A stretch of 64,000 nucleotides of DNA from Okamejei kenojei. Its lineage: Eukaryota. Positions within the stretch are counted from its first letter, which is position 1; the number at the start of each line of letters is the position of its first letter. Below are positions 14,044-61,755 of this stretch, in pieces. The notes under the pieces are model-generated. The model ran no database searches. It worked only from the letters and a program-made list of their open reading frames with translations, and was not told the DNA's origin. The translations under genes and the position numbers were made by a program. The stretch is from assembly GCA_035221665.1 (NCBI GenBank), contig CM069135.1, positions 33,232,001-33,296,000 of the forward strand, read 5' to 3'.

Positions 14044-15689
14044 TAATGTAACATAGGGTTATTCCTATGCAGAGGGTTTGTCTCTTTTTCTCAAGAAGGA
14101 TATGCCTATCTTGAATGTAGTGTAACAAATTATTGCGAAAAGAGGGCTGTCTGTGAAGTAAGCTTGAATAGAATGTATTTAGGATTGAGGTTATGAGGAA
14201 CTTTCACATGAAAGCTGATGAATCCTAGGAATTTTTGAAACAGAGGAAAATTGACATTTAATTGTTGAATCAAATAAAGGATCAATAGATTTTGGACATA
14301 CTAAAAAAGTATGGAGTTTGAGTGAAATTAAGTTGAGGGAGATCAGTAATGATTTTGTGAACTGTGGGCTTCTTATTCCACTTCACATGTTCTGATGGTG
14401 AAAGATTGAAATTGAAGCTGTGCACATGGCCAAAATTGCAGGACAGAAGAAGATTACAGGATTGATTGAGGCAACATAGAAAATAATAGGATAGAGTGAA
14501 GAACAACATTGAGTGATTTGAATCCATAAAGAAAATTCAAGGTCGATTGAACTTTTGAAAGCACAGGAAATATGAGTTAATGGGCTCGATAAGAATAAAT
14601 TCATGGTCAAAAGGTTTGGATTGCTTGTTAATGCAAGACATGGGAAGAGAGCCAGATAAAGAAACCAAATATGGAGCATGTCTCCAATCCAACAGCAAAT
14701 GCCAACACTATTCAGCAGGTTGACAGACCATGAACAAAAACGGAACAGAGCTAACGTTTCACATCATTCATTTTTCATCAGAGTTCGTCAATTCTAGAGG
14801 CAACTTCTAGAGGAAGTAGATGAACTTGGTGAGACATCAATAGTGTGAGTCCAGGATACAGGGACATTACCTTAAGACTACAGGCCAGCAATTAAAGACT
14901 GAAAAGAGTGGTGAAAATCATGGACTCTTTTCTAAAAGTCTCCAATCACTGAATCAATTCTCACTACGTGCACTGAGATCAAAATTCTCATAAGGTAAAG
15001 GTCACAAAGTATATGAAGATATAACAGTAAAATGAATCCCAGATACCTTCAGCAACAATCTAGATAAAAGTTGGGAAGTTGAAGTAATGGGGTGTCCTAT
15101 TCTTGCTTTCACATTGCAATGTTCTAGGTCCAGCTTCGAAGGGACCTTGAGCAGTCTCTTCCAAAAAGATAAAACTGTTGTTGACTTCTAAGAGTTTGAT
15201 TGACCTTTGATGGTCAACCTCTCACCCTCCCACGATCTAGTCTGTTAATGTATTTAGAGGATTTTACCTATGAAGTAAGCTTGAATAGAATGTATTGAGG
15301 TTATGAGCAACTTTCACATGAAAGGTGATGAATCCTAGGAATTTTCAAAACAGAGGAAACATAGACAAACCCCAGTTTGTTGATAGCATATGAATGCAAT
15401 ATGAACTTGAACTCTGAGCAGAGATCTTGTTGATATCATCAATCTAAACAATTTGCCAGGGTCACAATGAAACCATGAACTTATAATGCCTTATCTTCTC
15501 CATCAGGATATCACAAGTAATCAATTCTGAATTGCAGTTTTTTATATAAAACAGAGTAGCCATGGAGGACCTGGAGTCCTACTTACAAGTTAATTAAGGA
15601 TAGAGCCAAATGAGATAATTCTCAAGAAATATAGTGCCTATCATGACCTCAGGAACTATCAGTGTGTTTTGCACCCAGTAGATTACTTA

Positions 15690-16270
15690 TAAGGCATAAT
15701 TACCATTATAATATCGGAAATGTGGCAGCCAATTTGGACACAGCAAGCAGCCACAAACAGCAGTGCGACAATGACTGGTGATATTAGTTTCAGAAATACA
15801 GTGCGGAAACAGGCCCGTCAACCCACAAAGTCTGCGCTGACCAGCAATCCCCGTACACTCTCACTATCCAACCCATTAGGGACAATTTCCAATCTTTGAC
15901 CAAAGCCAATCAACTTACAGACCTGTCCATCTTTGGAGTGTGGAAGGGAACCGGAGCACCCGGGGAAAACCCACGCTGTCATGGGGAATGTACAAACTCC
16001 ATAGAGACAGCGACCATTGTCAGGATCGAAACCGGGTCTCTGGCGCTAAGGCAGCCACGCTACCGTTATGCCACCATGCCGCACAAAGGCAACAGAACCT
16101 TCATATTCACCTTTCAACTGAACATTTAATATGAAAGAAGGCACCTGTGATAGTACATTCACGTTCAACATTACATTGGAGTGTCAGCCTAATATTTATT
16201 TCCAAGTCTCTGGAGCCCAAGACCTTTTGACACAGCGGCATGTATGTGACAAACTGAACCAAGCCAACTG
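15690..16270 (-). mobile_element. Ancient SacSINE1/Deu-SINE-like element, interrupted by a younger SINE
   Basis: Minus strand ctccagagacttgg...taggctgacactcca...ggtgccttctttca resembles the recalled SacSINE1 head/Deu domain. The tail gtggcagccaatttggacacagcaag lies at 15720-15750. Confidence 0.55.
15786..16085 (-). mobile_element. HE1/V-SINE-like SINE
   Basis: tRNA-like head (minus strand gcggcatggtggcataacggtagc...ggtttcgatcc), V-domain and CR1-shared tail. Confidence 0.85.
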
Positions 16271-18351
16271 AATGTTCCTTCACTTTTTCTTGAATAGTCG
16301 ACGAATGCACTGGGTTTTCAGCTGGGACAGTGAATAATCATTCCGTGTACATCTTCAAGAGAGAGCAGAGTCTGTTACCCCATGGGGATAACATCAAATT
16401 TTCTATGCAGTGGTTATATTCAACACACAGGTAATATAATCTCCCAGACTAGTTTGAGGAGAGGGATTTTCTGATGATTGGTAGTTTATTGTAGTTTATG
16501 AGATTTACACCACTCAGATCTCCGATTGAACGGGGACTAGTTTTATTACAACTTAATTGCTGTAACTTGCACGTCTCCAAATGGTGCTATGCAGTCGAAA
16601 ATCAATTGGACAAAAATTTTGCACACATTTCTGCAATATTTTAACACATTTGATTCCAGATTTTTCAAAAGTACTTTATTTTGTGCCAGCATCATTTCCA
16701 AAATAAAACTTTCCCAGATAATGTCAACAATGATCGAACACCCAATATTCATCTCCAATATGATTTTCAAACTAACTGCTCTGATGAAAGATTGTTGTTA
16801 TTTGCGTATATCATTCAGGAGCAGGTACACAGATTAAAATATATTGCAGGCTTTCCCAAAGAGCAGGCTCACGTGTAGTATTACTCCTTGGAGACCTCTC
16901 TGGCAATGTCCCGCCAAGAACTCTTGGCTGCAGCCATGAAGGGTTCTTTTGGTTCTCTGTCACAAATCAAAGATGCTTCTTGCAGGCACTGTTCTTCACC
17001 AGCCTGCCCAGGTCCCTCTGATCACACGAGGCACTCTCCCACCTCCCCACCACCAGCTTCCACCTTCGTAGCATCATTTCTTTAGCCAGTACTCAGAGAA
17101 GGTCTCTTGTTTAGCAATAGGCCGCTTTAAGAACCAATTGCCAGGCTCATTACTGCTGGGCTGAATGCTGGTGGCTGCAAGATCTTGCAGTAGACCGGCA
17201 GAGTTATACCACACTGAAGCTGGCAACAGTTTCTGCATTAGACAGAGAACCTCTATAATGCTGTTCTTGCAGCCCATGCTATTTGTAGGATTCCCAAAAA
17301 ACTGTGGTTGGGTGGTGCACAGTGCTGTTATAACTCCAAAAACAAGGCAATTTCAATATACAGAAGTCTGGAGAACAGTTGGAAAAATCAGTTAGTCTTT
17401 TCCAAATCAGATTGTAGTGTCTGATAATTTGTCTTTACTATTGTTATTCAAGGAAATGCAGCTCGTCTTTGCATACACCATACTTTAACAAATAGTTATG
17501 AATTGTTTGACCAAATCAGATCATTTTCATCTTATTGGTTGGGCTAAAACCTATCACCTTTAACGTATGCCATGTAATTTTAGACTCCCCTGGGAAAACA
17601 CTGGGCAATGCACCTTATCTATGCCTCTCAAGATTTTATAAGCGATTTCAATGTTTGAGAATTTTGTGCAAGTGTTCTGTGATCCTTTGCTCACTCACTG
17701 TCCACATTAAACCATTTGATTATTCATGACTCTCTTTATTCTTTTCTCCATGCAAAATAATTTAGAGGCAAAATATAACACTGCCCACCCAATGGACACC
17801 AGCTGAGAGAACAGTAGAAATCACCGCCAATTCTTACCTGTCGTTATGTCACTGGGATCTGACAGTCTCAGACTTCTGCCTGTTTCTCTGCCTAGTTTAG
17901 TTTGAGGCTGATATTTTAACAATGATGCCCACCTGTGAAGCAATCATTTGCAGTAGGTCAAACAAGGTGGAGGTGGTGTGATAAGAGATCCAAAAGGGTA
18001 CGTTTTTTTTTTTTCCTTAAGATTTTTCAGTTGAAACCTGGAAGAGCAGTAGCAGCTGAACTCAATTCTTGGTAAAACCCCAATCACTGATCTTTTCTCT
18101 GGAGTAAGAGCTATGTTTCTGACTTATAATGCTGCATACCTTCTGAGAACTGAGGTGAAGCATGGGGCTTAATTTATTTGTATTTCAATGAACTGAATGT
18201 TCTTCCTTCTTCTTTGACCCAAGGCTGAAGACTGGAATCTGAAATATAAATTATTGTTCTTTGGTTATGAAGAATAGTGCGGCCTGGTGGCGCAGCGGTA
18301 GAATGGCTGCCTTACAGTGCCAGAGACCCGCGTTCGATCCTGGCAATGGGT

Positions 18352-19056: not shown

Positions 19057-19571
19057 GTGTACAAGGTGCTGTCTGTACGGAGTTTGTACATTCTCCCCGT
19101 GGCCTGCGTGGGTTTTCTCCGGTTGCTCCAGTTTCCTCCCACACTCCAAAGATGTACAGGTTTGTAGGCTAATTGGCTTGGTAAAAATTGTAAATTGTCC
19201 CAATTGTGTGTAGGATAGTGTTGGTGTGCGGGGATCGCTGATCGGCGCAGACTCGGTCGGCTGAAGGGCCTGTTTCCGTGCTTTATCTCTAAATTAATCT
19301 CTTTCAAGGTCCACACCAATACTGTATGTTTCCCAGCATGTGAAGATCACTCCTCCCATCCCTGGTCTTGCCAGTTTAACAGCCAGCTCCATGTCAAGGC
19401 CTCCTAATATCACACCAGCCCAGGAATCTGCAAATGCTCAGGGCCATGGTCGTTAAAACCTATTCCTAATTCTACCCTTGACAAATAATGTGAGCACAAT
19501 ATTTCCTTTAAATGTACTCTGCTCGCAGGAAAATGTGTTATATTACAATATAACATCTAAGTAAAGAGAGT

Positions 19572-20473
19572 GTGTGAACTGTGAGGAGGATGCTATGAGA
19601 ATGCAGGGTGACTTGGACAGGTTGGGGGAGGGGGCAGATGCATGGCAGATTAAGTTTAATGCAGATAAATGTGAGGTTATGCACTTTGGTAGCAAAAACA
19701 GGAAGGCAGATTACTATCTAAATGGTGTCAAGTTGGCAAAAGGGGAAGTACAACGGGACCTGGGGGTCCTTGTACATCAGTCTATGAAAGTAAGCATGCA
19801 GCTACAGCAGGGAGTGAAGAAAGCGAATGGCATGTTGGCCTTTATAACAAGAGGAATTGAATATAGGAGCAAAGAGGTCCTTCTGCAGTTGTACAGAGCC
19901 CTAGTGAGACCACACCTGGAGTATTGTGTGCAGTTTTGATCCTCTAATTTGAGGAAGGACATTCTTGCTATTGAGGGAGTGCAGATTAGGTTTACAAGGT
20001 TAATTCCCGGGGTGGCGGGACTGTCATATGCTGAGAGAATGGAGCAGCTGGGCTTGTGCACTCTGGAGTTTAGAAGGATGAGAGGATATCTCATTGAAAC
20101 ATATAAGATTGTTAAGGGTTTGCTAGAGGCAGGAAACATGTTCCCAATGTTGGGGGTGTCCAGAACCAGGGACCACAGTTTAAGAATAAGGTGTAGGCCA
20201 TTTAGAATGGAGATGAGGACACACTTTTTCCTCACAGAGAGTGGTGAGTTTGTGGAATTCTCTGCCGCAGAGGGCTGTGGAGGCAGGTTCTCTGGATGCT
20301 TTCAGGAGAGAGCTAGATAGGGTTCTTAAAAATAGCAGAGTCAAGGGATATGGGGAGAAGGCAGGAACGGGGTGCTGATTGGGGATGATCAGCCATGATC
20401 ACATTGAATGGCAGTGCTGGCTCGAAGGGCCGAATGGCCTACTCCTGCACATTGTTTATTGTCTATTGTCTAT
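19572..20473 (+). mobile_element. 5'-truncated CR1 LINE (RT C-terminus, 3' UTR, (ATTGTCT)n tail)
   Basis: WQIKFNADKCEVMHFG...LYRALVRPHLEYCVQF* followed by RKDILAIEGVQIRFTRLIPG. Confidence 0.93.
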
Positions 20474-21690: not shown

Positions 21691-22699
21691 TGTGCTTATA
21701 AAGACACATTTAATTTCAATGTGCAGACTCATTCTAGGCTGCCAACCAGGAACATATGCAATTTTAGCAAAACAGCTGCTCACAGATGTACTTAAGCAAA
21801 TTACAGGCGGCTTAATATTACCAGCAATATAGCGCAGAGTAGACAGTTTCCCATTGTCTGGGAACTCACCGATTTGACCCATATTCCCATTCATAAAGAT
21901 TGATCCCTGGTCAGTGCCAAAAACGAAAAACTGCACAAATGAGTGACAATTATTATTGTCACAGAGGATGAATTTCTCAGCATTTTAGTTAATAATGTGT
22001 GAAAGGCAGTCTCTGGTCAGATTCTCAGTGCCTATCAGCTGGACCTTCTTGATGTCTGAGCATCCTCCAAAGATTGCAATGGCACGGAGGTTTACAGAGC
22101 CGCCAGGGTAATCACTGAATACATCACTGGAATGGTGAATATTTGCTTTTGATGATAATATTGATGTGCAAATAGATGGCAATACAGCCAGGAAGAGATC
22201 CAACATGTGAAAATCAAAAATATCACAAATGCTGGAAATTTGAATTTAAAAAAAATTGCTGGAATCATTCAAAAGGTTAGGCAGTGTGTAGAGTTCATGT
22301 TACAGGTCCAGGACTGTGTCTCTTTCTACAGCTGTTGCCTGCCTGCTGAGTGTTTCCAGCAAGTTATGTTTTACCCAAGGCTTGTGGGGGTGTGCTTCAG
22401 ATCACCTGCAAGATTCAAGGACACCAAGGAAACCGAGATGGTAAAGAAGGGCAGAAGCAACTGCAGTGAAGGCTACAGCCCAAGGACATGTTGTGCTCAG
22501 TGCAGCCTAACAGAACTAATGGAAGCCTGATAATAGCTGTAAATAAATGAAACAAAAGATGCCACTTTTTCAACTTTTAGATGGGTAGGGTTTTTTTTTA
22601 AATTCTTCATTTGTCAATTAAGTCTCTAATCAAGTTCCCTTAATCTGAGCAAGAGGGCGAAGCCCCAATTTTTTGTCACTATTTTTTAACATCACAACA

Positions 22700-23245: not shown

Positions 23246-23885
23246 CAACAGTGGGGCACCTTGGGGGATCTACTGAATTGCAGTCCACTTGTCCAAATTA
23301 TTTAAATGGCAATGAAAATAAACCTGAGGATTTATGGCAGTGTCACCTTTCTTTGCTGAACAGGTAAAAGTTCCTGCTGTTGAATTTCTGGCAGAGTAGT
23401 ATTCCAGTAACGGTGTGCTGGGACACAATGCCACCATACTTCCTCTTTGGGGTCTTGCATCACATGTAAAGTCCTAAACCTGTCCTTGTATTTCACCAGA
23501 GTCATCACTGCATCAGCACTATGCTGCCAACTTGCTGCCACGTTCCACGAAGAAGCTCTGGAACCCGAGTTGTCTTCATCTGCTCAAAGCGAAGTCTGTA
23601 GGCTGGCCTGCTGTAAATTGGGCCTCACATTTTTTTTTCCATTAGACAGCCTATCTTAGTATTCCTTTAGCACATGTCCAAGTATTGTAACAAGCTGCCA
23701 TGGAACTGGCCTATTGTTATAGTACGACATGACCATGTCAGATGGCCATTATTTTAGTCATCTTCTCCATATGGCCATTTTTCTGCAGTAAATTTGACTT
23801 AATAATACTAGTTTAGATGAGAGCAACCCTTGTGACGTTTGTCATCATAATTATTTTAATGTATCAACAGCACACTATCAAAACT

Positions 23886-24085
23886 AGTCACAAAATGCTG
23901 GAGTACCTCAGCGGGAAAGGCAGCATTTCTGATGAGCAGGAATGCGTGACGTTTTGGGTCGAGACCCTTCTTCAGTCTGAAACGTCACCCGTTCCTTCTC
24001 TCCAGAGATGCTGCCTGTCCCGTTGAGTTACTCCAGCATTTTGTGTCTATCTTTGGTTTAAACCAGCATCTGTAGTTTCTTCCTT
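23886..24085. repeat. Fold-back Penelope-derived repeat with a hammerhead-like core
   Basis: Inverted arms cacaaaatgctggagtacctcagcggga and tcccgttgagttactccagcattttgtg. The minus strand of 23948-23975 reads CTGAAGAAGGGTCTCGACCCAAAACGTC. Confidence 0.8.
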
Positions 24086-24529
24086 CACGCACTATCCATA
24101 CTAGTACCTTGCCTTTTCTCAGAAACCCTTCTCAACATCGGAAGATGAAGCTCAGCAACCTTCATGGCTTTTTCCTGGAAGTTTCCACTGTAACCATGGA
24201 GTGGCCATAATCCAGAAAGGACAGGAATAATGCAATGTATTTGTGCATTGTACTGCATATTTGGTTTGGGGCAACTCTCCACACAATCCATGTGCAGTAC
24301 ACTGTTTGACATTGCTATCAACGCCTGCATATATCATTGATGGTCTTGTTCATCTGTTAAAATTAGTAACCAGGATCTACAGCTACCTGTAATTTACCTT
24401 CAACATCCAGTCTGTTCCTCTCTGTGTGTTACCACTAGCTACTCTATATGTCATCCAATGCACTCCTCTCTGGGTCACCATCTCATTCCCCTCAGGGAGC
24501 ATATAGCAAGTTAAAGAGTGAGTGATCGT

Positions 24530-24728
24530 AACACAAAGTGCTGAAATAACCCAGCGGACCAGGCACCATCCATGGAAGGAATTGGCAGACAACGTTTCGG
24601 GTCGGCACCTTTCTTCAGACTGAGTAAGTTATCTACCCATTCCCTCCACAGCTGCCTAACCCACTAAATTACTTCAGCACTTTGTGTTTTGCTGAACATT
24701 CCAGCATCTGCAGTCCCTTGTGTCTCCA
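24530..24728. repeat. Fold-back Penelope-derived repeat with a hammerhead-like core
   Basis: Arms acacaaagtgctgaa and ttcagcactttgtgt. Minus strand CTGAAGAAAGGTGCCGACCCGAAACGTT at 24591-24618. Confidence 0.75.
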
Positions 24729-25889
24729 AAGAGAGCTTGGTGATACGTTTTGCAGAAACAGAGTGACAAGTCCCTGTTTTTGCTTCTTCTGGCACAGCTA
24801 AAGGATGAAAAGAGGAAGAGCATTAGAATAAGGAGAGAAGACTAAATATTGCATTTCATTTTAACAGAGGAGTAATACAAGTATTTTGGAATATACCTTT
24901 TGTGAAAACAAATATCACAGAGAGCAGGAAGGCGAGAAGGAAGAGATGCAAAATGTCATCATAAACCTGTATATAGCACTTCCCTTTCTCCAACAACTGC
25001 CACTGCCTCACTCCCCCGAACATGGAGCAGTATTTCATCATAAGGACTGAAGGAAAATAGTTTTAAGGTTCATCATTTGATGTTGTTCTCTGACTGGCAT
25101 TATGACTGTCTTATCTTTAAGAAAAAATACACAAGTTAAGAATTACCCTGGGATAAATCCAAATGTTAGCATGCAGCCCGTTGTAGTTGTAATGGCAAGT
25201 GTTTGCACAAACTAGTTAGATTTCATGTGAAGCTTTTGGTATGGTAATTGTATGTACCCCAGTGTGTGGAAAAAAAAACTTCCTGGAGAAGGCTGGAAAT
25301 GTAAACTACATTAACCAAGCTATTTCAAAGACAAAAATGGAATGCATTTCAAGCGCTTGGAACACAATATGAGGTGAGGTTATCATGAATGATTATCATC
25401 TCAGAATGTGAGAATTGATCTTCCTACCTTGCTTCATCAGGTAAGCCTGCTAAAGTTTTTTTCCTGCATTTATTGCAATGCATGGGTTTGGCATTGACTC
25501 TCACTCTCTTCCTATGTCATCTGAGTCAAGCGCCAATAATGTCTGCATTACTGATCAAAGTCATGGCTTTCCTTTGCATGACTTCTCTTGGCAGCACATC
25601 CTGATTGCTTGGTGAACATCAAGGCATTTTAGCCTTCTGCAGATCTGTTGGGCATTACTTTGGCAGTAACCTGGCTCTTGTGCTCCCTACTTAAATTTTT
25701 GAATCACTTACCAGGTAAGCAGCTGCAGGCCTCAACCAAATCAATCCTTGTTCTCCCTCATCCAACAAGTGATAATGCTTTGGATGCATAAGGCTACTTT
25801 AATTGAGCCAATCTGAAACATTTCTGAAATAGTTTTCTTCACTTCAGTAAGTATGAGTCACACAACACACAACTTCATTCCCTTTATGA

Positions 25890-26043
25890 GTACACAAAAA
25901 GCTGGAGAAACTCAGCGGGTGCAGCAGCATCTAAGGAGCGAAGGAGATAGGCGACGTTTCGGGTCGAGACCCGAAACGTCGCCTATCTCCTTCGCTCCTT
26001 AGATGCTGCTGCACCCGTTGAGTTTCTCCAGCTTTTTGTGTAC
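25890..26043. repeat. 154-bp near-perfect palindrome of the Penelope-derived family
   Basis: 76-bp arms, 2-nt centre (GGGTC-GA-GACCC) and a single mismatch (25915 G / 26018 T). Confidence 0.95.
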
Positions 26044-26084
26044 CCTCGATTCTCCAGCATCTGCAGTTCCTTCTTTAACACTTA

Positions 26085-26203
26085 ATTCCCTTTATCATGT
26101 ATCTGTACACTGTGAATGGCTCGATTGTAATCATGTATTGCCTTTCCGTAACAAAAGCTTTTCACTGTACCTTGGTACACGTGACAATAAACTAAACTAA
26201 ACT
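26085..26203 (+). mobile_element. Rex/Babar-like 3' tail
   Basis: aaagcttttcactgtaccttggtacacgtgacaataaactaaactaaact. Confidence 0.65.
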
Positions 26204-27667
26204 TCAACTTTTAATGTTTTACCTTTGCAGAAAATCGAGGTTTAATGACTATAAATATTTTCTTTTAACCCTTAATGGAATCCAGATAATAATACATTTT
26301 GCTGAAGATATCTTTACCTTATGGATATTTTATACTTACAATTCTTGCATTAAGCAACCTTCATTAATTTTCCTTTAGGCAACGGATTACATGCAACATG
26401 TTTACAATACAGTACTGCCTTACAATACTTGTTATACATTTTTTTGCACAGAGTTTTGCTTGTTTTGATAAAATACATATTGGGTCCATTGGAGTCATTG
26501 TGTTGGGATGAAGAGACAATCATTAAGAATGACAGGCTCAAGGGGACAAATGGCTTTCACCTCCTTTTGAATTTTTCTAGAAGAGATTTGAAACAATACA
26601 AAAAATTAAACCCCTTCACATCTCACTCCTTTGGCTGTATCCTAACATCGTTAACAGTTTTTAATTGGTTACTTTGCTTATCACATCATAGCACATCAGT
26701 TTTTAATTAATCATTGCTTGACTTTGGTCATGCTATCTTGTCCAGAAGAAATCCATTGGCTGTGAAGTACTTGGAGACAATCTGAAGTATGAAAGGCACT
26801 ATATCCATGCAAAATATTTTCAATATCACCGTCCCAGCCCCAGACAAGACAAATTGTACTGAAGAAACAGTTATCCTTGTAGACGATTTTCAGCCAACGA
26901 GAGGGCAATCTGTCCAATGTTAAATATCTCCATAAATGCAGGCACATGAAAGAAAATAGAAGTGACAAAAACACACATCGAGAAGTTGAACGGAATTAGG
27001 AATTAGTAAAAGTAAAAATGAGGGGAAAGAAGGTAGAATGGAGACCACTGGTAAGCAGAAATAATTTCAATCTCTACTGTTATAGTGGTCAAACATTAAA
27101 TTTTACATCATGTATAAATTAAAACTGTAATATCCAAATCATTTTAAAGGCTAATTTGCTTTGAAAAAAGGACTACAAATGGGTAAATTAAAATTGCACA
27201 AATTTGCCATCCGTCTAAAATTTAAAGCAACAAAACCATATACAAACACATCATTTACATTTAAATTCTATAAACCAATAAATTCACTGATTCTTATTCT
27301 CCGTGGCTCTATGCAATAAGTGCTTATGAAATCACGACCGACTAATATTATGAAAGTTGATTGGACGTTCCTCAGCCGTGTGCACCAAAGAAAAATGATG
27401 GTATATTTGTGGCATCTTAAGCAGTAAAGTAAATCACATCAGGAGCGATGTTAATTGGAAGATAATATTGAATTATAGATCTTAGTGTGCGCAAAAATTA
27501 TAAAACATTATTAAATTGAAATTACCATAGTAAGTCAAGAGCAATATGATAGCTTGAAAAGGTGCATATTTTGTTAATGTTGAAACCAAAGGCTAAATTT
27601 CCACTTATGCCCTTTTGCTTACCTCTTGCTACTTTGACAGAAGTACTGAGGCAGAAACAGTATACAT

Positions 27668-27800
27668 GTCAGAAGAAAGATCATGACCCAAAACGTCACC
27701 CATTCCTTCTCTCCAGAGATGCTGCCTGACCCGCTGAATTACTCCAGTATTTTGGGTCTATTTTCAGTTTAAAGCAGCATCTGCAGTTCCTTCCTACACA
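27668..27800 (+). repeat. Penelope-derived repeat, single arm with decayed core
   Basis: cagaagaaagatcatgacccaaaacgtcacccattccttctctccagagatgctgcctgacccgctg. Confidence 0.75.
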
Positions 27801-27809
27801 TGTCAGTTA

Positions 27810-28500: not shown

Positions 28501-28896
28501 GTTGGGGGGAATCCTTCCACTCTTCAGCCAAAAGTATGGGAGAAGTAAAGGAGAACTCCTATGAAACTTTATCTTGCTTATTGCTGTTTTGTTTTCATCT
28601 TTTTGATGTTTATACCCATAGTATATAAAATCCGAACAGCATTTTGCAAAAGGATTAAATCAAATGGAGTAGAATGCCACTTAAAAAGAAACAAGTATGG
28701 ATCCATCTCCAACCACATTTTAACCTTGCACAATGAATCATATCTCTTAACTTGTAACATTAACATAATTAATGTGTAGTCTTTTGAACTGGTCATTCTG
28801 ATACTGTTCAATTTATATCAGGCAAACTTTGTTTTAAAGACATAGCAGCTGAACTAATACCCCTCAACAGATTCAAGAAACACACAGAAGATGTAC

Positions 28897-29874
28897 CTTT
28901 AGGGTAGTATGGCTTTTTTACATGACCATCAGAGGATCTAGACTTCTTCTCATCTCCGACATGATGCCTTGGAATTTGCTCTGAAGCGTCTCTCTTTGCA
29001 GCTTCCATGGCCATTTTTTCTCTCATTGCCTTAGCCCTCTCTGTTTCCAGTGCAATGGCCTTTTCTAACAGAGTCAAATTCCCCTTGGTCATATCAAACA
29101 CCTCCTCAGACCTGTCGGATTTGATTGAGCCAGTGTCATCATCTCTGTCGTGTGACTCTTCTTCCTTAACGCCAGAAGAGAAACCCCTGGAGCGGGGACT
29201 GAGCTGCTCCTCAAGCTTCATCAGGTTGACCATATCTGAATAGTTCCGATCTGACATCCGTCTCGTGACGTCGTCGTCAGCTCTGTTCTGTTGACAGTCA
29301 CTAAAATGATGCTGCTGGTTTCTTTCCTCATGCTGACTCTCACTTAGCTTCCTGGCCAAGTCAAAGCATTGGTTCCGTAGGCACTCAAGACTGCTCAGGC
29401 AAACAGCCTCATCGCTTTCATCAACGGCCTTTTCCAAACCATCACCGGTGGACTTGCACAATCCAAAGTTCGCATTTCTAATTTCATTCTGTATTAAACC
29501 ATCTATACGACCCCTCACACTTGCATTGTCTGAAAGGACCACACCATGTCCTTGTGCCAGTAGTTTAAGTGAGTCCACTGTTTCCCTAACAACGTCACTG
29601 TCAACATCTAAACTCAACTGGCAGGAGTCACTTTTATTGTTTTTTCTAACCCTGCCCCCGTTAGTGTCACTATCATCCTCCAGGCCACGCGCTGTGCTGT
29701 CGCTCATTTCAGACTCTGTCATTGCCCGAAATGCTGCATCTTCAGCTATTTTGCCCAGATTTAATAATGATTTTGCAACAAGCTCATCATAATTGTCATA
29801 TTCATCATTGTTGTTATCATCTTTCTCATTGTCCTGGCTTCTCCTGATATTATCAGATTCTTCTTGAAGGTCTT
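28897..29874 (-). CDS. MYT1L: MYT1L large coding exon (978 nt)
   Basis: Acceptor ttttccattag|AAGACC and donor CCTAAAG|gtacat. Reads EDLQEESDN...[34 protein letters not shown]...[21 protein letters not shown]...[35 protein letters not shown]...HVKKPYYPK. These are MYT1L-diagnostic motifs, and the exon overlaps ORF 28808..29722. Confidence 0.97.
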
Positions 29875-42842: not shown

Positions 42843-43145
42843 TTGGTGGCACAGTGGTAGAGTTGCTGCCTTACAGCGTCAGGTATCTGGGTTAGATCCT
42901 GACGATGGGAGCTGTCTGTATGGAGTTTGTACGTTCTCCCCATGACCTGCATGGGTTTTTCCCGGGTGCTCCAGCTTGCTCCCACACTCCAAAGACCCAC
43001 AGGTTTGTAGGTTGATTGGCTTTGATAAAATTGTAAATTGTCCTTAGTGTGTGCAGGATAGTGTAAGTGTGCAGGGATCACTGGTCGGCACGGACTCGGT
43101 GGGCCTAAAGGCCAATTTGCGTGCTAAACCAAACGAAACTAAACA
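42843..43145 (+). mobile_element. HE1/V-SINE-like SINE, near full length
   Basis: tggcacagtggtagagttgctgcc head, V-domain gtttgtacgttctcccc...cccacactccaaagac and an (aaact)-type tail. Confidence 0.87.
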
Positions 43146-44717: not shown

Positions 44718-45085
44718 ATAAGGAATTGCAGATGCTCATTTACAAGAAAAGGCACAAAGTACTGGAGTAACTCATTGGGTCAGGCAGCATCCCCAGAGTA
44801 CATGGATAGGTGCCATGTGGGGTCAGGACCTTCTTCAGACTGATTGTGGTGGGTTAGAGCGGGGTGGGAGCAGGGAAAGAAAGCTGGAGGAGATCAGGGC
44901 CAGGACAATACAGGTGAGGGGGGGGGGGGCTTCATCGGCAGATGGTTGGATAAAGGCCCGAGATAAAAATACAAAAGGTGTGAGACAAAAGAATGGAAGA
45001 GTTGTGAATTGTGAAACTAGAGGAAGGAATGTAGGTGGTAGTTCTACAGAGATGCTGCCTGACCCAGCACCTTTGTGTCTTTTTT
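44718..45085 (-). repeat. Penelope terminal-repeat fragment with a decayed hammerhead-like core
   Basis: aggaattgcagatgc...ggagtaactcattgggtcaggcagcatc...gggtcaggaccttcttcagactga, followed by a purine-rich tract. Confidence 0.7.
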
Positions 45086-45962
45086 TCAAGAATTTTGCCC
45101 TGATTTCTCCACTGAACCTATTAATGACCAAATATTTATGGACTCTTCCTCACGTGGAAAGATCTTTTAAAGATCTCTATTAGCCTTGAGAGATGAGCAT
45201 TGGCTTGTTCAGTTTCTCTAATAGTTGTACATCTTATTAGGGGCTTGTCTAATGTCTCCATATTTTGTAATATGTAAATTAACACCGAGAGACCCCTCCA
45301 TAAATAAGCCACTGGAACCAAACCAGAAGAATTGGATTCCAACTACTGCTGGTGCAGATTTCCCCTCCCAGGAATGATTAAACCCTCCATGTTTAAAATA
45401 ATTTTACTTAGAAACAAAAATATTCTGTAATTTTGAACAAATGGTGCAACTAATAGCCCATTATTTTAACATGGTCAAGCAAATTGGAAAGTTAAAACAT
45501 GAGGAAACTGCCTTGGTTGAATAGAATAATAAAAGCAAAGATCATCGGCTTGAAATATTAATTTTAATTCCCCTTCCACGTCTCCTTCCTGATCTGCTCA
45601 GAGCTTGTGGTGTATTTTTTCTTGTTTTTGTTTTTGTTTTTTATTTCCAGCATCCCCAGCACTTTCCTATACATCAGCATGAATACCTGATCTTAAGAAT
45701 GAATTTCTGATCTTGCAAATTGTCTCATGACCCTTGCAGTATTTTGATCTGCACTTTCTCCTGAGCTGTAACACTATATTTCGCATTGTTTCAATTGTAT
45801 TCATATTGTACGATTCACCTGGATAACATGCGATAAAAGATTTTTCACTGTATCTCAGTACATGCGAAGATAATAAAGATGATAATAAATAATAAAGAAA
45901 CATAAATACTCTTACAACTGCAGTAAGTCAGTGGTGTCAAACATAGAAATGTGAAGAATGGG

Positions 45963-46996: not shown

Positions 46997-47167
46997 GAAT
47001 GGGGCAAGTCAGTCCACTTATTAGAAATAATTTAGTTTGGCGGCTATGTGAAGGATCTTACTTTCTGAAATACTGTAGATGCTGGGACCAGGAAAGGCAT
47101 GGCCTCGCTGCCTCTTAAGAGAATCCAGAGGTTAACAGACAGAAAATCAATGTCATATCAATAAGAT

Positions 47168-47895
47168 ATGGAACAGAGGGATCTAGGAATAACTGTGCAT
47201 AGTTCCCTGAAGGTGGAATCGCATGTAGATAGGGTGGTAAAGAAAGCCTTTGGTGTGCTGGCCTTTATAAATCAGAGCATTGAATATAGGAGTAGGGAAG
47301 TAATGTTAAAATTGTACAAGGCATTGGTAAGACCAATTCTGGAGTATGGTGTACAATTTTGGTCGCCTAGTTATAGGAAGGATGTCAACAAAATACAGAG
47401 AGTACAGAGGAGATTTACTAGAATGTTGCCAGGGTTCCAGCAACTATGTTTCAGAGAAAGGTTGAACAAGTTAGGTCTTTATTCTTTGGAGCGCAAAAGG
47501 TTAAGGGGGGACTTGATTGAGGTCTTTAAAATGATGAAATGGATAGACAGAGTTGACGTGGATAAGCTTTTCCCATTGAGGGTAGGGAAGATTCAAACAA
47601 GAGGGCATGACATGAGAATTAAGGGACAGAAGTTTAGGGGTAACGTGAGGGGGAACTTCTTTACTCAGAGGGTGGTGGCTGTGTGGAATGAGCTTCCAGC
47701 AGAGGTGGTGGAGGCAGGATCGGTTTTAACATTTAAAAGTAAAGTGGATAGGTATATGGACGTGAAGGGAATGGAGGGGTATGGTCTGAGTGCAGGTAGA
47801 TGGGACTAGGGGAAAACAAATGGTCGGCACGGACTGGAAGGGCCAAGAGGGCCTGTCTCCGTGCTGTAATTGTTATATGGTTATATGGTTATATA
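47168..47895 (+). mobile_element. Young 5'-truncated CR1 LINE
   Basis: Stop-free 213-aa ORF (RDLGI...LYKALVRPILEYGVQFWSP...FFTQRVVAVWNELP) and a (TTATATGG)n tail. Confidence 0.94.
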
Positions 47896-48989: not shown

Positions 48990-49400
48990 TCTGAGAGCCC
49001 CATATCTGCGGAAGGATGTGCTGGCTCTGGAGAGGGTCCAGAGGAGGTTTACAAGAATTATTCCAGGAATAAGAGGGTTAGCATATGATGAGTGCTTGAC
49101 AGCACTGGGGCTCTACTCATTGGAGTTTAGAAAGTTGAGGGGGGGGGACCTAATTTCCACTGGTGGGAGAGTCGAGGACCAGGGGTCATAGCCTCAGAAT
49201 TAAAGGGCACTCTTTTAGAAAGGAGGTGAGGAGTAACTTCTTCAGTCAGAGGGTAGTTAATCTGTGGAACTCATTGACACAGAGGGCTGTGGATGCCAAG
49301 TAAGTGGATAATTTTAAGGCAGAGATGGACAAATTCTTGATTAGAACGGGTGTCAAGGGTTATGGGGAGGAGGCAGAAACAGCTTAATTCTACTATAACG
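48990..49400 (+). mobile_element. CR1 fragment with internal deletions
   Basis: PYLRKDVLALERVQRRFTRIIPG, and its 3' part matches 40381-40560. Confidence 0.85.
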
Positions 49401-50081
49401 TACACTTGTGGTTCAGGTACAGTTCTGAGAGATTTATGGTGCACCGACTCTTTGGTGCTCTAATATTATAGCTTCGGCAGTAATATTCCGTAGTCCTCCA
49501 ATGTCCTCAGTACGCTCAGACCTCAGCAGACATGTATCAGGAAGGCTAGTCATCCATTGCATGGTTCCCCCTAACCTCAGAAGATATGTGAGGAGTCAGG
49601 CCTATGACATCCTTCTAATTTTGGGATACTGCCTGGCTATATTGTGGGGTTATGATGTCAGATGGCAGGAGTTAAACAGGTGATGCAGGATATTTCTGTG
49701 AAAGGGAGGTATGTTTATCAGAGACTGTGCTCACTACTTGTTTTAGAAGCCTTACATGAATCCATAGATGACAATAACATTATTAACATGCAGGTAAGAT
49801 GAAACAAATTATAAACTTAAGGCAGAATGCAAAGAAAAATACATTCACCGTTATAGATGGCAAACTATGTGGCTTATGTGCAAAGCATTGGTCAATCACT
49901 ACAAACTTGAAACATTGTCATTACACAAATCACAACAGGTTTTAAGTTAAATATCCTCATGGATCACAATTATTTGTTTCTGAGAATTTTATGTACACAA
50001 GTTATACATGCTTTCAATTAATAAATGTTAGTTCAACTTTAAAAAGTGTTTTTATGAAACAAATGTGTTACTTACATCATT

Positions 50082-50566
50082 TAGATTTACTAAAATGTTG
50101 CCAGGGTTCCAGCAACTATGTTACAGAGAAAGGTTGAACAAGTTAGGTCTTTATTCTTTGGAGCGCAGAAGGTTAAGGGGGGACTTGATTCAGGTCTTTA
50201 AAATGATGAAAGGGATGAACAGAGTTGACGTGGATAAGCTTTTCCCATTGAGGGTAGGGAAGATTCAAACAAGAGGGCATGACATGAGAATTAAGGGACA
50301 GAAGTTTAGGGGTAACGTGAGGGGGAACTTCTTTACTCAGAGGGTGGTGGCTGTGTGGAATGAGCTTCCAGCAGAAGTGGTGGAGGCAGGATCGATTTTA
50401 ACATTTAAAAGTAAAGTGGATAGGTATATGGACGTGAAGGGAATGGAGGGGTATGGTCTGAGTGCAGGTAGATGGGACTAGGGGAAAACAAATGGTCGGC
50501 ACGGACTGGAAGGGCCGAGAGGGCCTGTCTCCGTGCTGTAATTGTTATATGGTTATATGGTTATAT
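50082..50566 (+). mobile_element. Young CR1 3' fragment, near-identical to 47411-47895
   Basis: RFTKMLPGFQQLCYRERLNKLGLYSLERRRLRGDLI and the same (TTATATGG)n tail. Confidence 0.93.
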
Positions 50567-53321: not shown

Positions 53322-54364
53322 CTGCCTGACAGATTAGAAACACACTTCAGGAGTCAGGTGTGGTTTTGTCAATGACCAGTGTCCGCAGAAGACTTCATGA
53401 ACAGAAATACAGAGGCTGCACAGCAAGATGCAAACCACTGGTTAGCCGCAAAAATAGGATGGCCAGGTTACAGTTTGCCAAGAAGTGCTTATAAGAGCAA
53501 CCACAGTTCTGGAAAAAGGTCTCGTGGACAGATGAGACGAAGATTAACATATATCAGAGCGATAGCAAGAGCAAAGTATGGAGGTGAGAAGGAACTGCCC
53601 AAGATCCAAAGCATACCACCTCGTGTGTGAAACACGATGGTGGGGGTGTTATGGCCTGGGCATGTATGGTTGCTGAAGGTACTGGTTCACTTATCTTCAT
53701 TGATGATACAACTGCTGATGGTAGTAGCATAATGAATTCTGAAATGTATAGACACATCCTATCTGCTCATTTCAAACAAATGCCTCAGTGGCCGGCAGTT
53801 AATTCTACAGCAAGGCAATGATCTCAAACACACTGCTAAAGCAACAAAGGAGTTTTTCAAAGCTAATGAATGGTCAATTCTTGAGTGGCCAAGTCAATCA
53901 CCCGATCTGAACCCAATTGAGCATGCCTTTTATATGCTGAAGAGAAAACTGAAGGGGACTAGCCCCCAAAACAAGCATAAGCTTAAGATGGCTGCAATAC
54001 AGGCCTGGCAGAGCATCACCAGAGAAGACACCCAGCAGCTGGTGATGTCCATGAATCGCAGACTTCAAGCAGTCATTGCATGCAAAGGAAATGCAACAAA
54101 ATACTAAACATTATTACTTTCATTTACATGACGTTGCTGTGTCCCAAACATTACGGTTCCCTGAAGTGGGGGGACGATGTATAAACACTGCTGTAGTTTC
54201 TACATGGTGAAACCAAAATATATAAAAATGGCCTTTATTAAAATCTGACGATTTGTACTTTAACCTAATGTGATTTTTTTTTCTATTACATATCTCAAAT
54301 TGTGGAGTACAGAGGCAAGTAAATAAATGATGGGTCTTTGGCCCAAACATTATGGAGAGCACTG
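53322..54364 (+). mobile_element. Tc1-family transposon, 5'-truncated, with pseudogenised DD34E transposase and right IR/DR end
   Basis: VRRRLHEQKYRG..WTDETKIN..VKHDGGGVMAWAC..NDLKHTAK..LEWPSQSPDLNPIEH..LQAVIACKGNATKY* (stop about 54107), with internal stops and frameshifts. Ends ...GAGCACTG followed by TA. Direct repeats of cccaaacatta. Confidence 0.93.
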
Positions 54365-55234: not shown

Positions 55235-55410
55235 ATGCTGGTTTCTGGTTTATACCAAAATTAGGCACGAAATGCAGGAGTAATGCATTGGGTCTGGCAT
55301 CATCTATCGAGAAAATGGACAGGTGATACATCGTCACCAATGGATAGGTGACTGAGACTAGAGGAGGGTCTGAAGAATGGTCCTGACCCAAAACATCACC
55401 AATCCATCCT
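55235..55410. repeat. Decayed Penelope-derived repeat
   Basis: gggtCTGAAGAATGGTCCTGACCCAAAACATCacc at about 55365-55400, preceded by an inverted arm. Confidence 0.6.
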
Positions 55411-56318
55411 CAGTTTTTTAATTTGATTATCTGATAATAAAATTGATTTTTGTCCTTGAAATCTATTGATATCCTTCTCTGAAATGTTTCTACAACATAC
55501 AGTACAAAGCATATTCGGAGATATTATATGACTGTAAATTGCACTAAAGGTTCTGCTAAATCATGACATGGACAAAGGTAATTGCTCTGAATGCTCTAGA
55601 ATTAATATTACAGAGTGAAATCTCCAGACAATATTTCCTTTTGTTTGTTATTAAACTTGAAAAGCCCATGTTGCTAATTGATATTAAACAATGAAGCTTT
55701 CCACACAATTAAAGATGCAGATAAACTATTTAAGGCATTTTAATTTAAATATCATGTTTTCATTCAATTATGCTACCCAAAATATTGGGGTTTTTTAAGT
55801 GCAAATTGAGGAACTATATTGAAAACAGAGTCATTCAGCAAAATAATCCGTATTATTTTGAAATAATTCCAAATTTCAGCTTTGCGTTAAGAGGGGTTTT
55901 GTCAAACTGAAACAGAGTTAAGTTATACAGCACGGAAACAGGAATTTCCACCCAACTTATCCATGCCCAACAAATTCAGATTTGTCAGCATTTGGCTCAA
56001 ACCTTTCCTGTCCATGAACCTGAAATGATGAAATGATTTAAGTTGCATCTTTTTCTGCAGCTGGCTGGTAATGCTGTTTTTGATTAGCTTAATAGAGGTT
56101 GATTTGCTATGTCAATCTTTTCTCCAGCTTGCCTTTTGTTCAATGTGGTTGAACGTTTTACTGCCCTTGGCCCTCTCCACTCCCAACCCCAAGCTGGTAC
56201 CTGACAAGATTCAACTGATGTGCACAGTGGTACACAGTGGTGAATGATGGAGATTCTGGAACTTGAGCAAGTGACCTTTTCAGTCAAGAATCAAAGCAAG
56301 TATTGAGCAGACTGATTT

Positions 56319-56625
56319 CAGTTTAGTTTAGAGATACAGTGTGGATACAGACCCTTCGGCCAAACCGAGTCTATGCCGACCATCGATCACCCGTACACTA
56401 GTTCTATGTAATCCCACGGTCACACCCTACACAACAGCAGGAATGTACAAAAGCCAATTGACCTAGAAACGTGCATGTCTTTGGAGTGTGGGAATTAACC
56501 AGAGAACCTGGAGAAAACCCACACAGTCACAGGGAGAATGTACAAACTCCGTACAGACAGCACCCGTAGTCAGGATCGAACCTGGGTGGCTGGTGCTGAA
56601 TGGCAGCAACTCTACCACTGCACCG
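56319..56625 (-). mobile_element. HE1/V-SINE-like SINE
   Basis: agtttagtttagagatacag...gtacaaactccgtacagacagcacccgtagtcaggatcgaacc. Confidence 0.87.
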
Positions 56626-56999
56626 ATCTTGCTTTATTTTCCATAGACTTCCCTGGTCAATACCAAAGGAGTGTTTTGATTAATGGTCAGGCATGAATTG
56701 AAATGTTAAAAATCTGGACAATATACTCCATCTTAAATGTTAACTGATGTTTCATTGGTCAGGCCTTTTATGTATTTTAACATATATTTGGTCTTTCATT
56801 TCATCTCTCCAGTGCTCATTATTTTTATTTTTATCTTACAGAAGACAGGTTGATAATTTAAGGTGAAACATGACAGGTATATTAAGGAAGTGATTACCTC
56901 ATTTTCTGCCTATTAACTTTAGATTTGTCAATTCTGTTTGGAAGGATTCTTGGAGCCAAACATGATCTCCCATCTCCAGTGACCTCAACATATAAGCTC

Positions 57000-57135
57000 A
57001 ATCTAAAGAAGGGTCTCGACCTGAAATGTCACCCATTCCTTCTCTTCAGAGATGCTGCCCGCCCCGCTGAGTTACTCCAGCATTTTACGCCTATCTTCAG
57101 TTTAAACCAGCATCTGCAGTTCTTTCCAACACATA
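57000..57135 (+). repeat. Penelope-derived repeat with a mutated hammerhead core
   Basis: CTAAAGAAGGGTCTCGACCTGAAATGTCacccattcc. Confidence 0.75.
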
Positions 57136-59040: not shown

Positions 59041-60555
59041 TGTGGTGCCTTCAAGACCACATTGGTTTTGCATGCAGCCCGTCACCACTGGCAACTCGCC
59101 AGCAGCCTCACGAGAAGGTCCAGCCACAGAGATCAATAACAACTCCTAGGTCAGACCACTAATTGGCCTGATCTGCATGCAGGTTATGATTGGTGAGAAT
59201 GTACGTAAAAGGGGCTTCTGGAATAAACGTGACACAAGGTGTCTGGTTCAGCTAAGTGTTGTTCGTTCTTTGCTCTCAGTCGTGGGATTCAGTAGATCTA
59301 CAACTGGTGACCCCATTGCTAGACGTAACCTTCCACTTACTCCAGAAATGTATGACGATAAAAGTGACACGGTGTCAGTCGATGAAGTAAATCTCGATGC
59401 CCCAACTTTTTTGACAGCCAATGCAAGAACGTGGTTTTCAATACTAGAAGCTCGATTTCACTCCCTCAATGTCACGAGCCAATGGACAAATTCGGGTTCC
59501 CAGCAGCTTGTCTTCCAGAGCAGATCGCATGGGAAATAGAGAACGTGAAGAAATCCTGAAGAAATGACGCCAAACGACGAGCTTAAATCCACCATCTTGG
59601 AGCGAACGCAGCCCTCGAAGCAAGCCCGCATTTCGTTGCTGCTGGGGGATGATAATCTTGGTGATAGGAAGCCATCACAAATGCTGCGTAGTTTGCGCAG
59701 GACGGCGGTAGACAAAAAGCTTGACGGCGATGTCTGAACACAGACGTTTCTCCACTGCATGCCTACTCAGGTGCAGGGGCATCTGATAGGTATGTTTGAA
59801 TTGGCCAGCATAGATGAGCTCGCAAAACAGGCCGACATTGTCATGGAGACAACCTCTGCACTGCAGGTGACTGTGGTTAATGCAAGAACAGTAAAGCCGA
59901 ATAATGCACAGCGGGAACACCTGCAATGGTCTACGTGCCTGCTGACCTCCAACACTGCAAACATGTTTTGGTCCGACACGATACAGTCCGCCGACCTCTT
60001 CAGCAAGCATACAGATGGCCCTTACCAAGTCATCCAACGCCTACCCAAAAGTTTTGTGATCTACGGAACGGAAAAAAACTGACACCGTGTCCGTCGACCG
60101 GTTAAAGCCAGCATACGTCGAGAACCAACCGACTACCTCACCCACTGAACCGGCAAAGTCACAAGACCCCAACACTTCCAGTCAAAGACCTCCCACACTG
60201 CAGTACCAAACACGATCAAGCCATAAAATCAACCGCCAGACCGGTACGGGGCAGGGCAAAGCCAGGCAGGCGCCACCTTGTATGACTCGGTGGCTGAGGG
60301 GGGAGCTGTGTCGCCTTCATGCCCACGTTGGTTTTGCACACAGCCCGTCACCCAGCCTCACGAGAAGGTCCAGCCACAAGAGCGCAACAACAACTCCAAG
60401 GCCAGACCACTAATTGGCCTAATCTGCACACGGGGTTATGACTGGTGCGAATGTAGGTTAAAGGGGCTTCTCGAATAAACGGGGCACATGGTGTCTGGCT
60501 CAGCTAAGTGTCGTTAGTGCTTTGCTTTCTGTCGTGGGATTCAGTCGATCCTACA
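59041..60555 (+). mobile_element. Internally deleted Gypsy-type LTR retrotransposon (5' LTR 59041-59302, 3' LTR 60307-60555)
   Basis: Both LTRs are TG...CA. 4-bp TSD TGGT. PBS TGGTGACCCC (59305-59314, tRNA-Trp-like). PPT GAGGGGGGAG. Gag remnants PTFLTANARTWFSILEARF and LGDRKPSQMLRSL. Integrase tail GPYQVIQR...VSVDRLKPAY. Confidence 0.9.
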
Positions 60556-60559
60556 TGGT

Positions 60560-60860
60560 GGTGCTGGAGTCTACAGCGTGGAGGCTGTGGGCCTGGAGCT
60601 GAGCCTGGAGCTCGGGTGGGGTGGTGGTTCCGGCCTGCTGGTGGTCGGTGGAGAGGCGAGGGCCGGGCTCCACCTTTCCTTGATCATCGTTGCTTTTTGC
60701 ATATCTTTCATTGATTTGTTCTATGTACCTTCTATATCTCTCATATTCCTCTCTCCTGGCGCTCAGTCTGAAGAAGGGTCTTGGCCTGGAGTGTCACCTA
60801 TTCCTTTTCTCCAGGGATGTTGCCTGACGCGCTGAGATACTCCAGCATTTTGTGTCTTTC
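60560..60860 (+). repeat. Penelope terminal-repeat fragment with a decayed core
   Basis: cagtCTGAAGAAGGGTCTTGGCCTGGAGTGTCacctattcc...ctccagcattttgtgtct. Confidence 0.65.
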
Positions 60861-61639
60861 CTCAGACTCTGCTCAATGGACCACATTCATTTCATCCACT
60901 TAATTACAATTTCCATTACTCCGGAGTCATATCTTGCATGCACCTGTTCATTGCACCAATATTCTGCTGCCAGTTTTACATCCACATGTCAAGGTTTTCA
61001 CAGAGCACCTCGTGTTAATGCATTACTCACCTACTCTTCCCACTCCCTTGGAGAACAAGAAGTCGGCGCCAGTAGACTGGTGGGCGCCAGATTCAGGTCA
61101 AAGCTCATTGTACACGTTAATAAAGCAGAGCTCACTGTCCTCGCTGCAGCGATAGCCCGAGGCTGTTGCCTGCAGCATGTTTCCATCAACAGAAAACGTT
61201 GACACTCTACCTAATCTTCCATTATCATATCCCATTTATTCTTCATCAGACATTTATTTCCTGATTTATAAGTGGCAGATGGTGCAAGCCTTAACTCTGA
61301 GCTGCCAGGTAGCCAGGAACTGCAACTGGGCCAGATGGTGATGGACGAGCAGGAAGACACAGCCGATGACAAACACCATATCTCGCATTCACACTTGCTT
61401 TGCTTGGGCACAGGATCTGCAAATGGATGCCCGTTGTCAAGGATCAATAACACAATTGAAACCCAGGAGGCATTGCCACACTTAACTTCTGCTGCAGAGG
61501 TTTCAGGTGAGCACTTCCATGGGACGGGCTGCAAAAGAAGATTGGTAGCTGAATGAAGGGCTTAATACAGCCACCAACTGATCAGAGTGGGTTGTGTTGC
61601 ACCTGAACTGGATAGGGACCAATACCCTGAATGGATATT

Positions 61640-61755
61640 GAAAGAACTGCAGATGCTCGAAAAATCGAAGGTAGACAAAAAATGCTGGAGAAACTCAGTG
61701 GGTGAGGCAGCATCTATGGAGAGAAGGAATTGGCAACGTTTCAGGTTGAGATCCT
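61640..61755 (-). repeat. Penelope-derived repeat arm
   Basis: gaactgcagatgct...aaatgctggagaaactcagtgggtgaggcagcatct...aacgtttcagg. Confidence 0.7.

Follow-up and report, generated by a model that had tools for sequence, protein, structure and literature searches.

The introns of the MYT1L gene of the skate Okamejei kenojei contain a short dispersed repeat that begins with a hammerhead ribozyme motif. The stretch of 64,000 nt analysed here, termed the window, spans positions 33,232,001–33,296,000 of contig CM069135.1 (assembly GCA_035221665.1); positions given below are those of the window, with the strand in parentheses. We consider it likely that the repeats are dead, 5′-truncated ends of the pseudo-long terminal repeat (pLTR) of a skate Penelope-like element (PLE) of the Neptune/Nematis type, and that the source elements kept a hammerhead that is probably protein-assisted. 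The repeat is located within a PLE terminal repeat, and is a very abundant new example of the minimal hammerhead known from these elements. The hammerhead is genuine in the repeat family, but it is damaged or folded away in every copy in the window.

The repeat unit is ~135 nt in length and consists of a ~30-nt core, a ~70-nt body and a 30–35 nt tail, the hammerhead core being just the first ~30 nt. The two half-motifs of the core have 8 and 12 matches in the window with up to two mismatches, compared with shuffle means of 1.7 and 1.3, and none of 100 shuffles scored as high. A profile made from 10 copies detects repeat arms at 14 loci of the window: five solo copies, eight two-armed loci and one fragment. 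Counted with their spacers, these loci occupy 2430 bases (3.8%) of the window. The 13 long arms have a mean pairwise identity of 0.74 (range 0.57–0.88), and there are at least four subfamilies, which differ right after the cleavage site (window positions 25988, 24590 and 44800). All 11 core positions listed in a preliminary description of this DNA do hold a repeat copy, but two of them (25961 and 61736) lack the CUGANGA half. Arms or fragments beyond that list are found near 9365, at 22226–22375, at 38.0–38.26 kb and at 45043, the arms at 22226 and 38016 being weak (E 0.06–0.08).

The abundance of the repeat was assessed with the 57.0-kb copy as a probe of four sequencing runs at an 80% likeness cut-off. 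Probe-matching contigs number 105,436, 103,152 and 88,888 in three DNA-type runs (from three organisms) and 11,847 in a fourth; these are contig counts and not copy numbers, and the run X16 is probably DNA. The figure of ~10^5 contigs per run, together with a density of one locus every 4.6 kb in the window, suggests a copy number on the order of 10^5 in the skate genome. Of the joints and loose ends recorded in the runs, 15 of 205 and 24 of 976, respectively, are listed, and the statements made here on joints and loose ends refer to these and to positions outside helix II (56995–57027). The subfamily of the copy at 44838 also appears as a strong loose-end consensus in all four runs. Viral and metagenome contigs gave one and four pattern matches, respectively, none of which resembles the skate repeat (best E 0.07), and these were dismissed as chance.

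When 20 arms are aligned, their majority sequence shows a CUGANGA … GAAA … NUH core and recovers the consensus core that had been proposed. It agrees with the consensus shown in Fig. S3 of Cervera and de la Peña (2014; PMC4209133) in having one extra base after A9, a G10.1–C11.1 pair, the palindromic 15.2–16.2 bases and the NUH site. The layout suggested earlier, a type I minimal hammerhead with a loopless palindromic helix III, therefore matches the PLE consensus. The 10.1–11.1 pair forms in 7 of 11 cores. Over four pairs of helix II, 84% of cells are paired in the 11 window cores, yet the helix is predicted to be out-competed; it is probably better read as 4 bp closed by a tetraloop than as 5 bp with a 2-nt loop. 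Departures from the majority are fewer at non-CpG core positions (8 of 124 cells) than elsewhere (183 of 1231; Fisher p 0.009), a difference that suggests the core was kept across subfamilies.

The PLE minimal hammerheads reported in that paper are mostly dispersed single copies with some opposite-strand pairs, as in the skate, and genomes of fish, coelacanth and Xenopus contain thousands of them; the skate copies are apparently far above the 4,000–9,000 it gives. Its list of 56 motifs from 40 species includes no chondrichthyan. Hammerheads at PLE termini are established in fish, amphibians and reptiles, so the skate case is unsurprising in kind. PLEs are also reported to be expanded in whale shark introns (10.1101/443036). 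A literature search gave no account of this repeat family in skates, nor of a minimal hammerhead in any chondrichthyan, although Repbase and Dfam, which lay outside the search, may well hold the family.

The preliminary description linked the repeats to the Penelope family through endonuclease remnants at 10731–11130 and about 38050. Both remnants are confirmed, and the repeat is tied to them by a composite insertion, a chain of untranslated region (UTR) homology and a modest colinearity with a predicted protein. The composite insertion, at 37965–38280, consists of a tail-less repeat arm (~37979–38016, −), an endonuclease fragment (38052–38189, +) and a tailed repeat arm (38203–38266, +), all within one exact 14-nt target-site duplication (37965–37978 and 38267–38280). 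In a control, a match of at least 12 nt with one mismatch was seen in 1 of 400 flank pairs.

The other remnant (10740–11155, +) is a frameshifted GIY-YIG endonuclease with part of the linker region, a CxxC and a YIG-like motif and the C-terminus, followed by a C-rich 3′ region. It is adjoined by an inverted 3′-UTR piece (10525–10730, −). A 165-nt part of this piece matches what lies upstream of the 44838(−) core at 63% identity (score 77 against a shuffle maximum of 49; E 1e-8). The likeness of the C-rich region 11150–11310 to the other UTR pieces is not significant.

No domain was found by Pfam in the window endonuclease remnants, and a word-based protein search with the remnant gave no match. 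A full scan with 10740–11155 retrieves 23 proteins, four of which have GIY-YIG Pfam matches, all below the curated cut-off; at least two of the 23 (P0128 and P0129) were rejected as unrelated repetitive proteins. One of the 23 in turn retrieves 54 proteins of 734–1126 residues, most of which have reverse transcriptase (RT) and some GIY-YIG Pfam matches. Of these full-length proteins, 40 match the window, and only at the 10.7- and 38-kb remnants. A C-X(2–5)-CxxC linker pattern is present in 52 of the 54. The stretch homologous to the linker is found in both window remnants with loss of cysteines, and remnant positions 10895–10969 align to the CxxC region between the two GIY-YIG motifs of the relatives. 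A cysteine linker between RT and endonuclease marks the Neptune and Nematis clades (Craig et al., 2021, PMC8557442). The endonuclease is thus of the Neptune/Nematis type, as judged from the linker and CxxC pattern. A C-terminal GIY-YIG domain with CxxC is likewise described for endonuclease-bearing PLEs of these clades (Arkhipova et al., 2013, PMC3846280; Craig et al., 2021), from which the skate element differs in being known from fragments and in its unusually many extremely short copies.

Two public predicted proteins, P0124 and P0133, read through repeat and endonuclease pieces, and both are probably spurious gene models. P0124 is colinear with the order endonuclease C-terminus, UTR-like sequence and core-plus-tail-like codons; its codon-profile scores of 27.7 and 28.8 exceed the maxima of 25 shuffles each (23.4 and 21.2), which is a modest margin. 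P0133 combines the repeat with an endonuclease piece; as it is likely to be a spliced gene model, it was not used as a link to the PLE.

The architecture of the insertions is also that of PLEs. At two-armed loci the 5′ ends of the arms meet and the tails point outward; these fold-backs are thus head-to-head, and not tail-to-tail as first described. At six of the eight two-armed loci one arm ends at model position 130–133 and the other at 92–107. Loose ends in the sequencing runs pile up at ~57086 and ~57134, the first partly from divergence of the probe copy. An inverted pLTR with a one-sided tail of 30–40 nt and a palindromic junction is the PLE pattern, head-to-head being the common arrangement, and target duplications are variable (Arkhipova et al., 2013; Craig et al., 2021). 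Window copies show the inverted pLTR, the one-sided tail of this length and target duplications. Only target duplications of 16, 15 and 12 nt were counted. The shorter ones of 9–10 nt, at 23877, 34049 and 57000, are explicable by chance, being equalled in 59 and 20 of 400 controls, and 7 of the 13 loci examined showed no duplication.

The best preserved fold-back (25872–26095) is young and near-perfect, with 80 of 84 positions alike between the arms and a target-site duplication of 16 nt with one mismatch (25872–25887 and 26080–26095). It has no CUGANGA, and its centre lies exactly on helix II, which would fit snap-back priming or annealing at that point. The fold-back at 23877–24088 has its core on the − strand (C3 at 23975, G12 replaced by A) and its tailed arm on the + strand. 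That at 24529–24722 belongs to a divergent subfamily; its core (C3 at 24618, −) has complete catalytic nucleotides, a GUU site and an A–C mismatch at 10.1–11.1. At 41290–41497 the core on the + strand (C3 at 41407) also has its catalytic nucleotides intact, with a weakened helix II and U at 15.2, and the tailed arm is on the − strand. An old fold-back at 55243–55412 has its core on the + strand (C3 at 55370), with A at both G12 and 16.2. For 55355–55420(+), where the core is damaged, folding predicts a long helix-I-like stem between the upstream spacer and the strand past the cleavage site. A further old and divergent fold-back (22222–22378) is coreless, its arms having E-values of 4e-4 and 0.06. 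The longest unit (44716–45087, −) comprises ~200 nt of PLE 3′ UTR, a damaged core (C3 at 44838) and the tail, together with a short inverted arm (45043–45085).

Solo copies with a tail are found at 27661–27806(+), where the 5′ junction is inside the core and overlaps the 12-nt duplication and G12 is A; at 34047–34182(+), with A at G12 and U at 15.2; at 56997–57134(+), the probe copy, with A at G5; and at 61639–61760(−), where truncation inside helix II has left no CUGANGA. The copy at 60762–60858(+) is tail-less, with G at A13 and A15.1, and has a pyrimidine-rich stretch upstream that is possibly UTR. A short internal fragment of the unit was detected by the profile at 9365–9390(+). The CTGATGA variant at 14753–14781(−), at first counted as a family member, is a lone hammerhead-like core with no good helix II. 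Both core halves are present, and a bare core of this kind occurs in 2 of 300 shuffled windows. However, the likeness of its downstream sequence to the repeat is not significant, as 460 of 3000 random windows score as well (96 of 3000 for the whole unit). Perhaps it belongs to an older related family.

A mechanism can be proposed by analogy with the Poseidon element PAc of Anolis (Frangieh et al., 2024, PMC11167929), whose tail is explained by two internal RT start sites demonstrated in vitro, with both strands extended and ribozyme cleavage dependent on protein. PAc and the skate element share two 3′ ends a tail-length apart downstream of the hammerhead, and AT-rich targets. PAc belongs to a different clade, and its open reading frame (ORF) starts in stem II; no ORF start was identified at the skate hammerhead, and the N-termini of the 54 relatives gave no convincing match. 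If the anole RT chemistry applies to the skate PLE, as we infer, the GIY-YIG endonuclease of the element would nick AT-rich DNA, and the RT would copy the element RNA from either start site, ~95–100 or ~130–135 nt downstream of the hammerhead. Copying would mostly halt near the hammerhead, which would yield the ~135-nt solo copy. Fold-backs may arise when both nicked strands prime or when the complementary DNA (cDNA) snaps back, the 5′-truncated ends joining at the palindromic helix II/III. The source elements would have kept the minimal type I hammerhead under some constraint, probably weak, dimer-only or protein-assisted cleavage. A ribozyme that is inactive unaided, as in PAc, would fit the skate case too.

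Copies undergo neutral decay after insertion. The catalytic nucleotides are complete in two of the nine arms extending into the core's 5′ half, 24618(−) and 41407(+), both of which are buried in fold-backs. G12, which is part of a CpG, is altered in 6 of 14 arms. In all four sequencing runs the G-to-A share at the helix III CpG (9–12% of depth) is close to that of the tail CpG (9–11%). These losses support the decay, and the suggestion that the mutations are mostly of the CpG type holds, in that decay is largely at CpG sites. Matches to hammerhead models are not to be seen in the window: no copy passes a strict minimal-hammerhead descriptor (shuffle mean 0.06), and the Rfam scan that had been recommended, carried out on the window and the best core, yields no hammerhead match at E up to 10. 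Rfam matches at 25.9 kb reflect the long hairpin alone.

Several observations weigh against the origin and history proposed here. No RT remnant or full-length element was found in the window, where a complete pLTR–ORF–pLTR copy is not seen; RT is in the same ORF in the full-length relatives. Plain protein alignment of P0124 to the window is not significant (56 versus a shuffle maximum of 64). Helix I is 2 bp, the third and fourth pairs each being formed in 2 of 9 cores. The published PLE consensus has at least 3 bp, with 2 bp in Drosophila virilis (PMC4209133); since that paper includes the 2-bp variant, the skate motif, with its helix II of 4 bp and a tetraloop, is filed as a weak-helix variant. 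The comparison of core and other positions is inflated by subfamily differences and by the method of finding copies. The helix II covariation looked for across copies is not seen: two-sided changes occur at none of eight pairs in the window cores, a small and decaying sample of 11. The 3′ strand of helix II recurs in the strand past the cleavage site, and in the majority sequence the 5′ strand of helix II is predicted to pair with this downstream strand (probability 0.6–0.99, compared with ~0.01 for helix II). The predicted energy of the forced hammerhead is −3.9 kcal/mol, versus −7.2 kcal/mol for the competing fold. Finally, seven of the nine core-reaching arms begin within ~10 nt of C3, as judged by eye, which is sharper than random truncation predicts.

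Since the competing fold is predicted to be favoured, even the source elements may be inactive. In context, the helix II probability is at most 0.02 for seven of eight folded copies and 0.19 for the other. This raises the question of whether the hammerhead is a dead relic in the source elements as well, retained for a role as a promoter, a splice signal or a protein-binding site, its palindromes favouring fold-back formation. The 2-bp helix I, the lack of covariation and the predicted fold speak for such a relic, as do anole hammerhead mutants that are without effect on insertion in vitro and the absence of RNA-seq ends at the anole cleavage site (PMC11167929). On the other hand, core nucleotides are kept across subfamilies that differ in their helix I strand, D. 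virilis is reported to have a helix I of 2 bp (PMC4209133), and the anole ribozyme cleaved once protein was added (PMC11167929). A relic is rather unlikely, and a hammerhead retained in source elements is preferred.

The clustering of 5′ ends near C3 allows a second possibility, that the short solo copies are a discrete product. They would be run-off cDNAs from the internal RT starts in the 5′ pLTR, in which copying stops at the 5′ end of the RNA (a transcription start or a splice junction just upstream of the core), or else copies of a SINE-like master (short interspersed nuclear element) mobilised in trans. Loose 5′ ends in all four runs retain only ~3–9 letters that resemble the family, the rest being AT-rich and mixed (agreement 0.34–0.38 among the listed ends). 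Solo copies start off the cleavage site, and therefore self-cleavage does not define their 5′ ends. The bases just upstream of the skate core would fit a splice acceptor as well as an Initiator consensus. In D. virilis an intron ends at position 491, the 5′ end of helix I, with C3 at 496 (PMC4209133), which provides a precedent for a splice or start site at the skate core. In the anole PLE, RT is shown to initiate internally, at a point downstream of the hammerhead that lies ~110 nt inside the ORF (PMC11167929). Stalling of RT at a hairpin followed by microhomology joining would likewise cluster the ends, however, and longer element sequence is present at two loci (the 44838 UTR and the 38-kb endonuclease piece), as ordinary truncation predicts. 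No tRNA-like head was found, which is a weak test. The notion of ~10^5 copies of a discrete ~135-nt PLE product, with a 5′ end fixed just upstream of the hammerhead, is thus held tentatively, as the less probable case; it would refine and not exclude the explanation of the repeats as 5′-truncated PLE ends.

The preliminary description termed the repeats retrozyme-like. Non-LTR retrozymes (LTR, long terminal repeat) are defined by tandem units, each with a hammerhead (Cervera and de la Peña, 2020, PMC7229834), and they spread via circular RNAs, so that the window copies would be dispersed monomers. Like the skate repeat, they are short, non-coding and PLE-related, with a type I hammerhead. A preprint derives vertebrate retrozymes from pLTRs and finds them in its one chondrichthyan, and its supplements may list the skate family (Li, Clavereau and Pollet, 2026; 10.64898/2026.07.22.740005). 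Among the listed joints, head-to-tail joints occur in all four runs, with 1–21 contigs per joint and run, and one has a single letter between the units. Tandem PLE insertions produce such joints too, and tandem contigs number a few dozen in the three large runs, where each listed place has at least 660–750 loose 3′ ends. Thus, head-to-tail joints are a small minority among those listed genome-wide. In the window there is no tandem unit; the nearest same-strand cores are 643 nt apart and are separate insertions. In contrast to retrozyme units of ~150–450 bp in tandem with circular RNA, the skate repeats are dispersed, as solo copies or inverted pairs, and their 5′ and 3′ ends are fixed rather than circularly permuted. 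Their hammerhead is minimal and not of the canonical retrozyme type (PMC7229834), the ~6-bp helix I and loop contacts of the latter being absent from the skate cores. A retrozyme origin is thus highly improbable, and the PLE terminus remains the preferred source.

The host gene is MYT1L on the − strand, as had been proposed. The open frame 28811–29902(−) matches the MYT1L proteins of Leucoraja erinacea and Rhinoraja longicauda at 98% and 97% identity, respectively; the large coding exon is at 28889–29875(−), with 98% identity to the L. erinacea protein. Exon mapping places other coding exons at ~31540–31816, 12540–12680, 3755–3847 and 2280–2390 (all −). It found no exon for residues 1–50 in the window, and thus the region 32–64 kb appears to be one intron. 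Every copy of the repeat lies outside the mapped exons, in keeping with the intronic location first reported. All four core-bearing solo copies (27670, 34052, 57003 and 60768) are antisense to MYT1L (p = 1/16, too few for significance), and the three sense-strand cores all sit inside fold-backs.

It may be asked whether intronic copies have been co-opted as regulators of MYT1L, by cleavage or as double-stranded RNA hairpins. The antisense orientation of the solo copies and the ability of fold-backs to form long hairpins (a predicted 75-bp stack at 25890) could be taken in this sense. The orientation has the above p-value of 1/16, however, the density of copies is that of the genome-wide repeat, and the cores are damaged or buried in predicted folds. 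Such co-option is hardly credible; inserted copies decay neutrally, and it is very unlikely that they cut MYT1L pre-mRNA.

The window holds several other repeats. A second abundant SINE-like family, which seems to resemble the elasmobranch HE1 SINE, is at 7009–7172, 15789–16047, 19065–19297, 33338–33570, 41509–41755, 42852–43125 and 56315–56620. Fragments of the 3′ part of long interspersed nuclear elements (LINEs), presumably CR1/L2-like as judged by eye, are at 11306–11585, 19565–20449, 40381–40581, 41927–42397, 47165–47809, 49188–49376 and 50032–50481; the first interrupts the PLE remnant, and the pieces 47411–47710 and 50083–50382 have 97% identity. A perfect 7-nt tandem repeat of 4.7 copies (41894–41926) adjoins a LINE end. 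The 389-codon open stretch at 39294–40463(−), with a weak zf-RVT match (E 0.001), is the 3′ part of an L1/Tx1-like LINE. A Tc1/mariner-type transposase fragment is at 53588–54107(+) (PF13358, E 1.2e-8). At ~59150–60500, similar translated stretches at ~59150 and ~60400 surround gag/pol-like pieces (weak DUF7041, E 0.06), and this is possibly a decayed LTR retrotransposon.

The skate repeats carry a warning, in that PLE repeats leak into public gene models. Of wider interest is that they form a very large collection of short PLE insertions of graded age; their two 3′ ends, clustered 5′ ends and palindromic junctions could make them test material for the role of the hammerhead in PLEs and for the formation of inverted pLTRs. 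Should the solo copies prove to be a discrete product, few families of hammerhead-derived repeats in a vertebrate would be larger, and the junctions would be a genome-scale record of where PLE reverse transcription starts and stops and of how inverted ends are formed.

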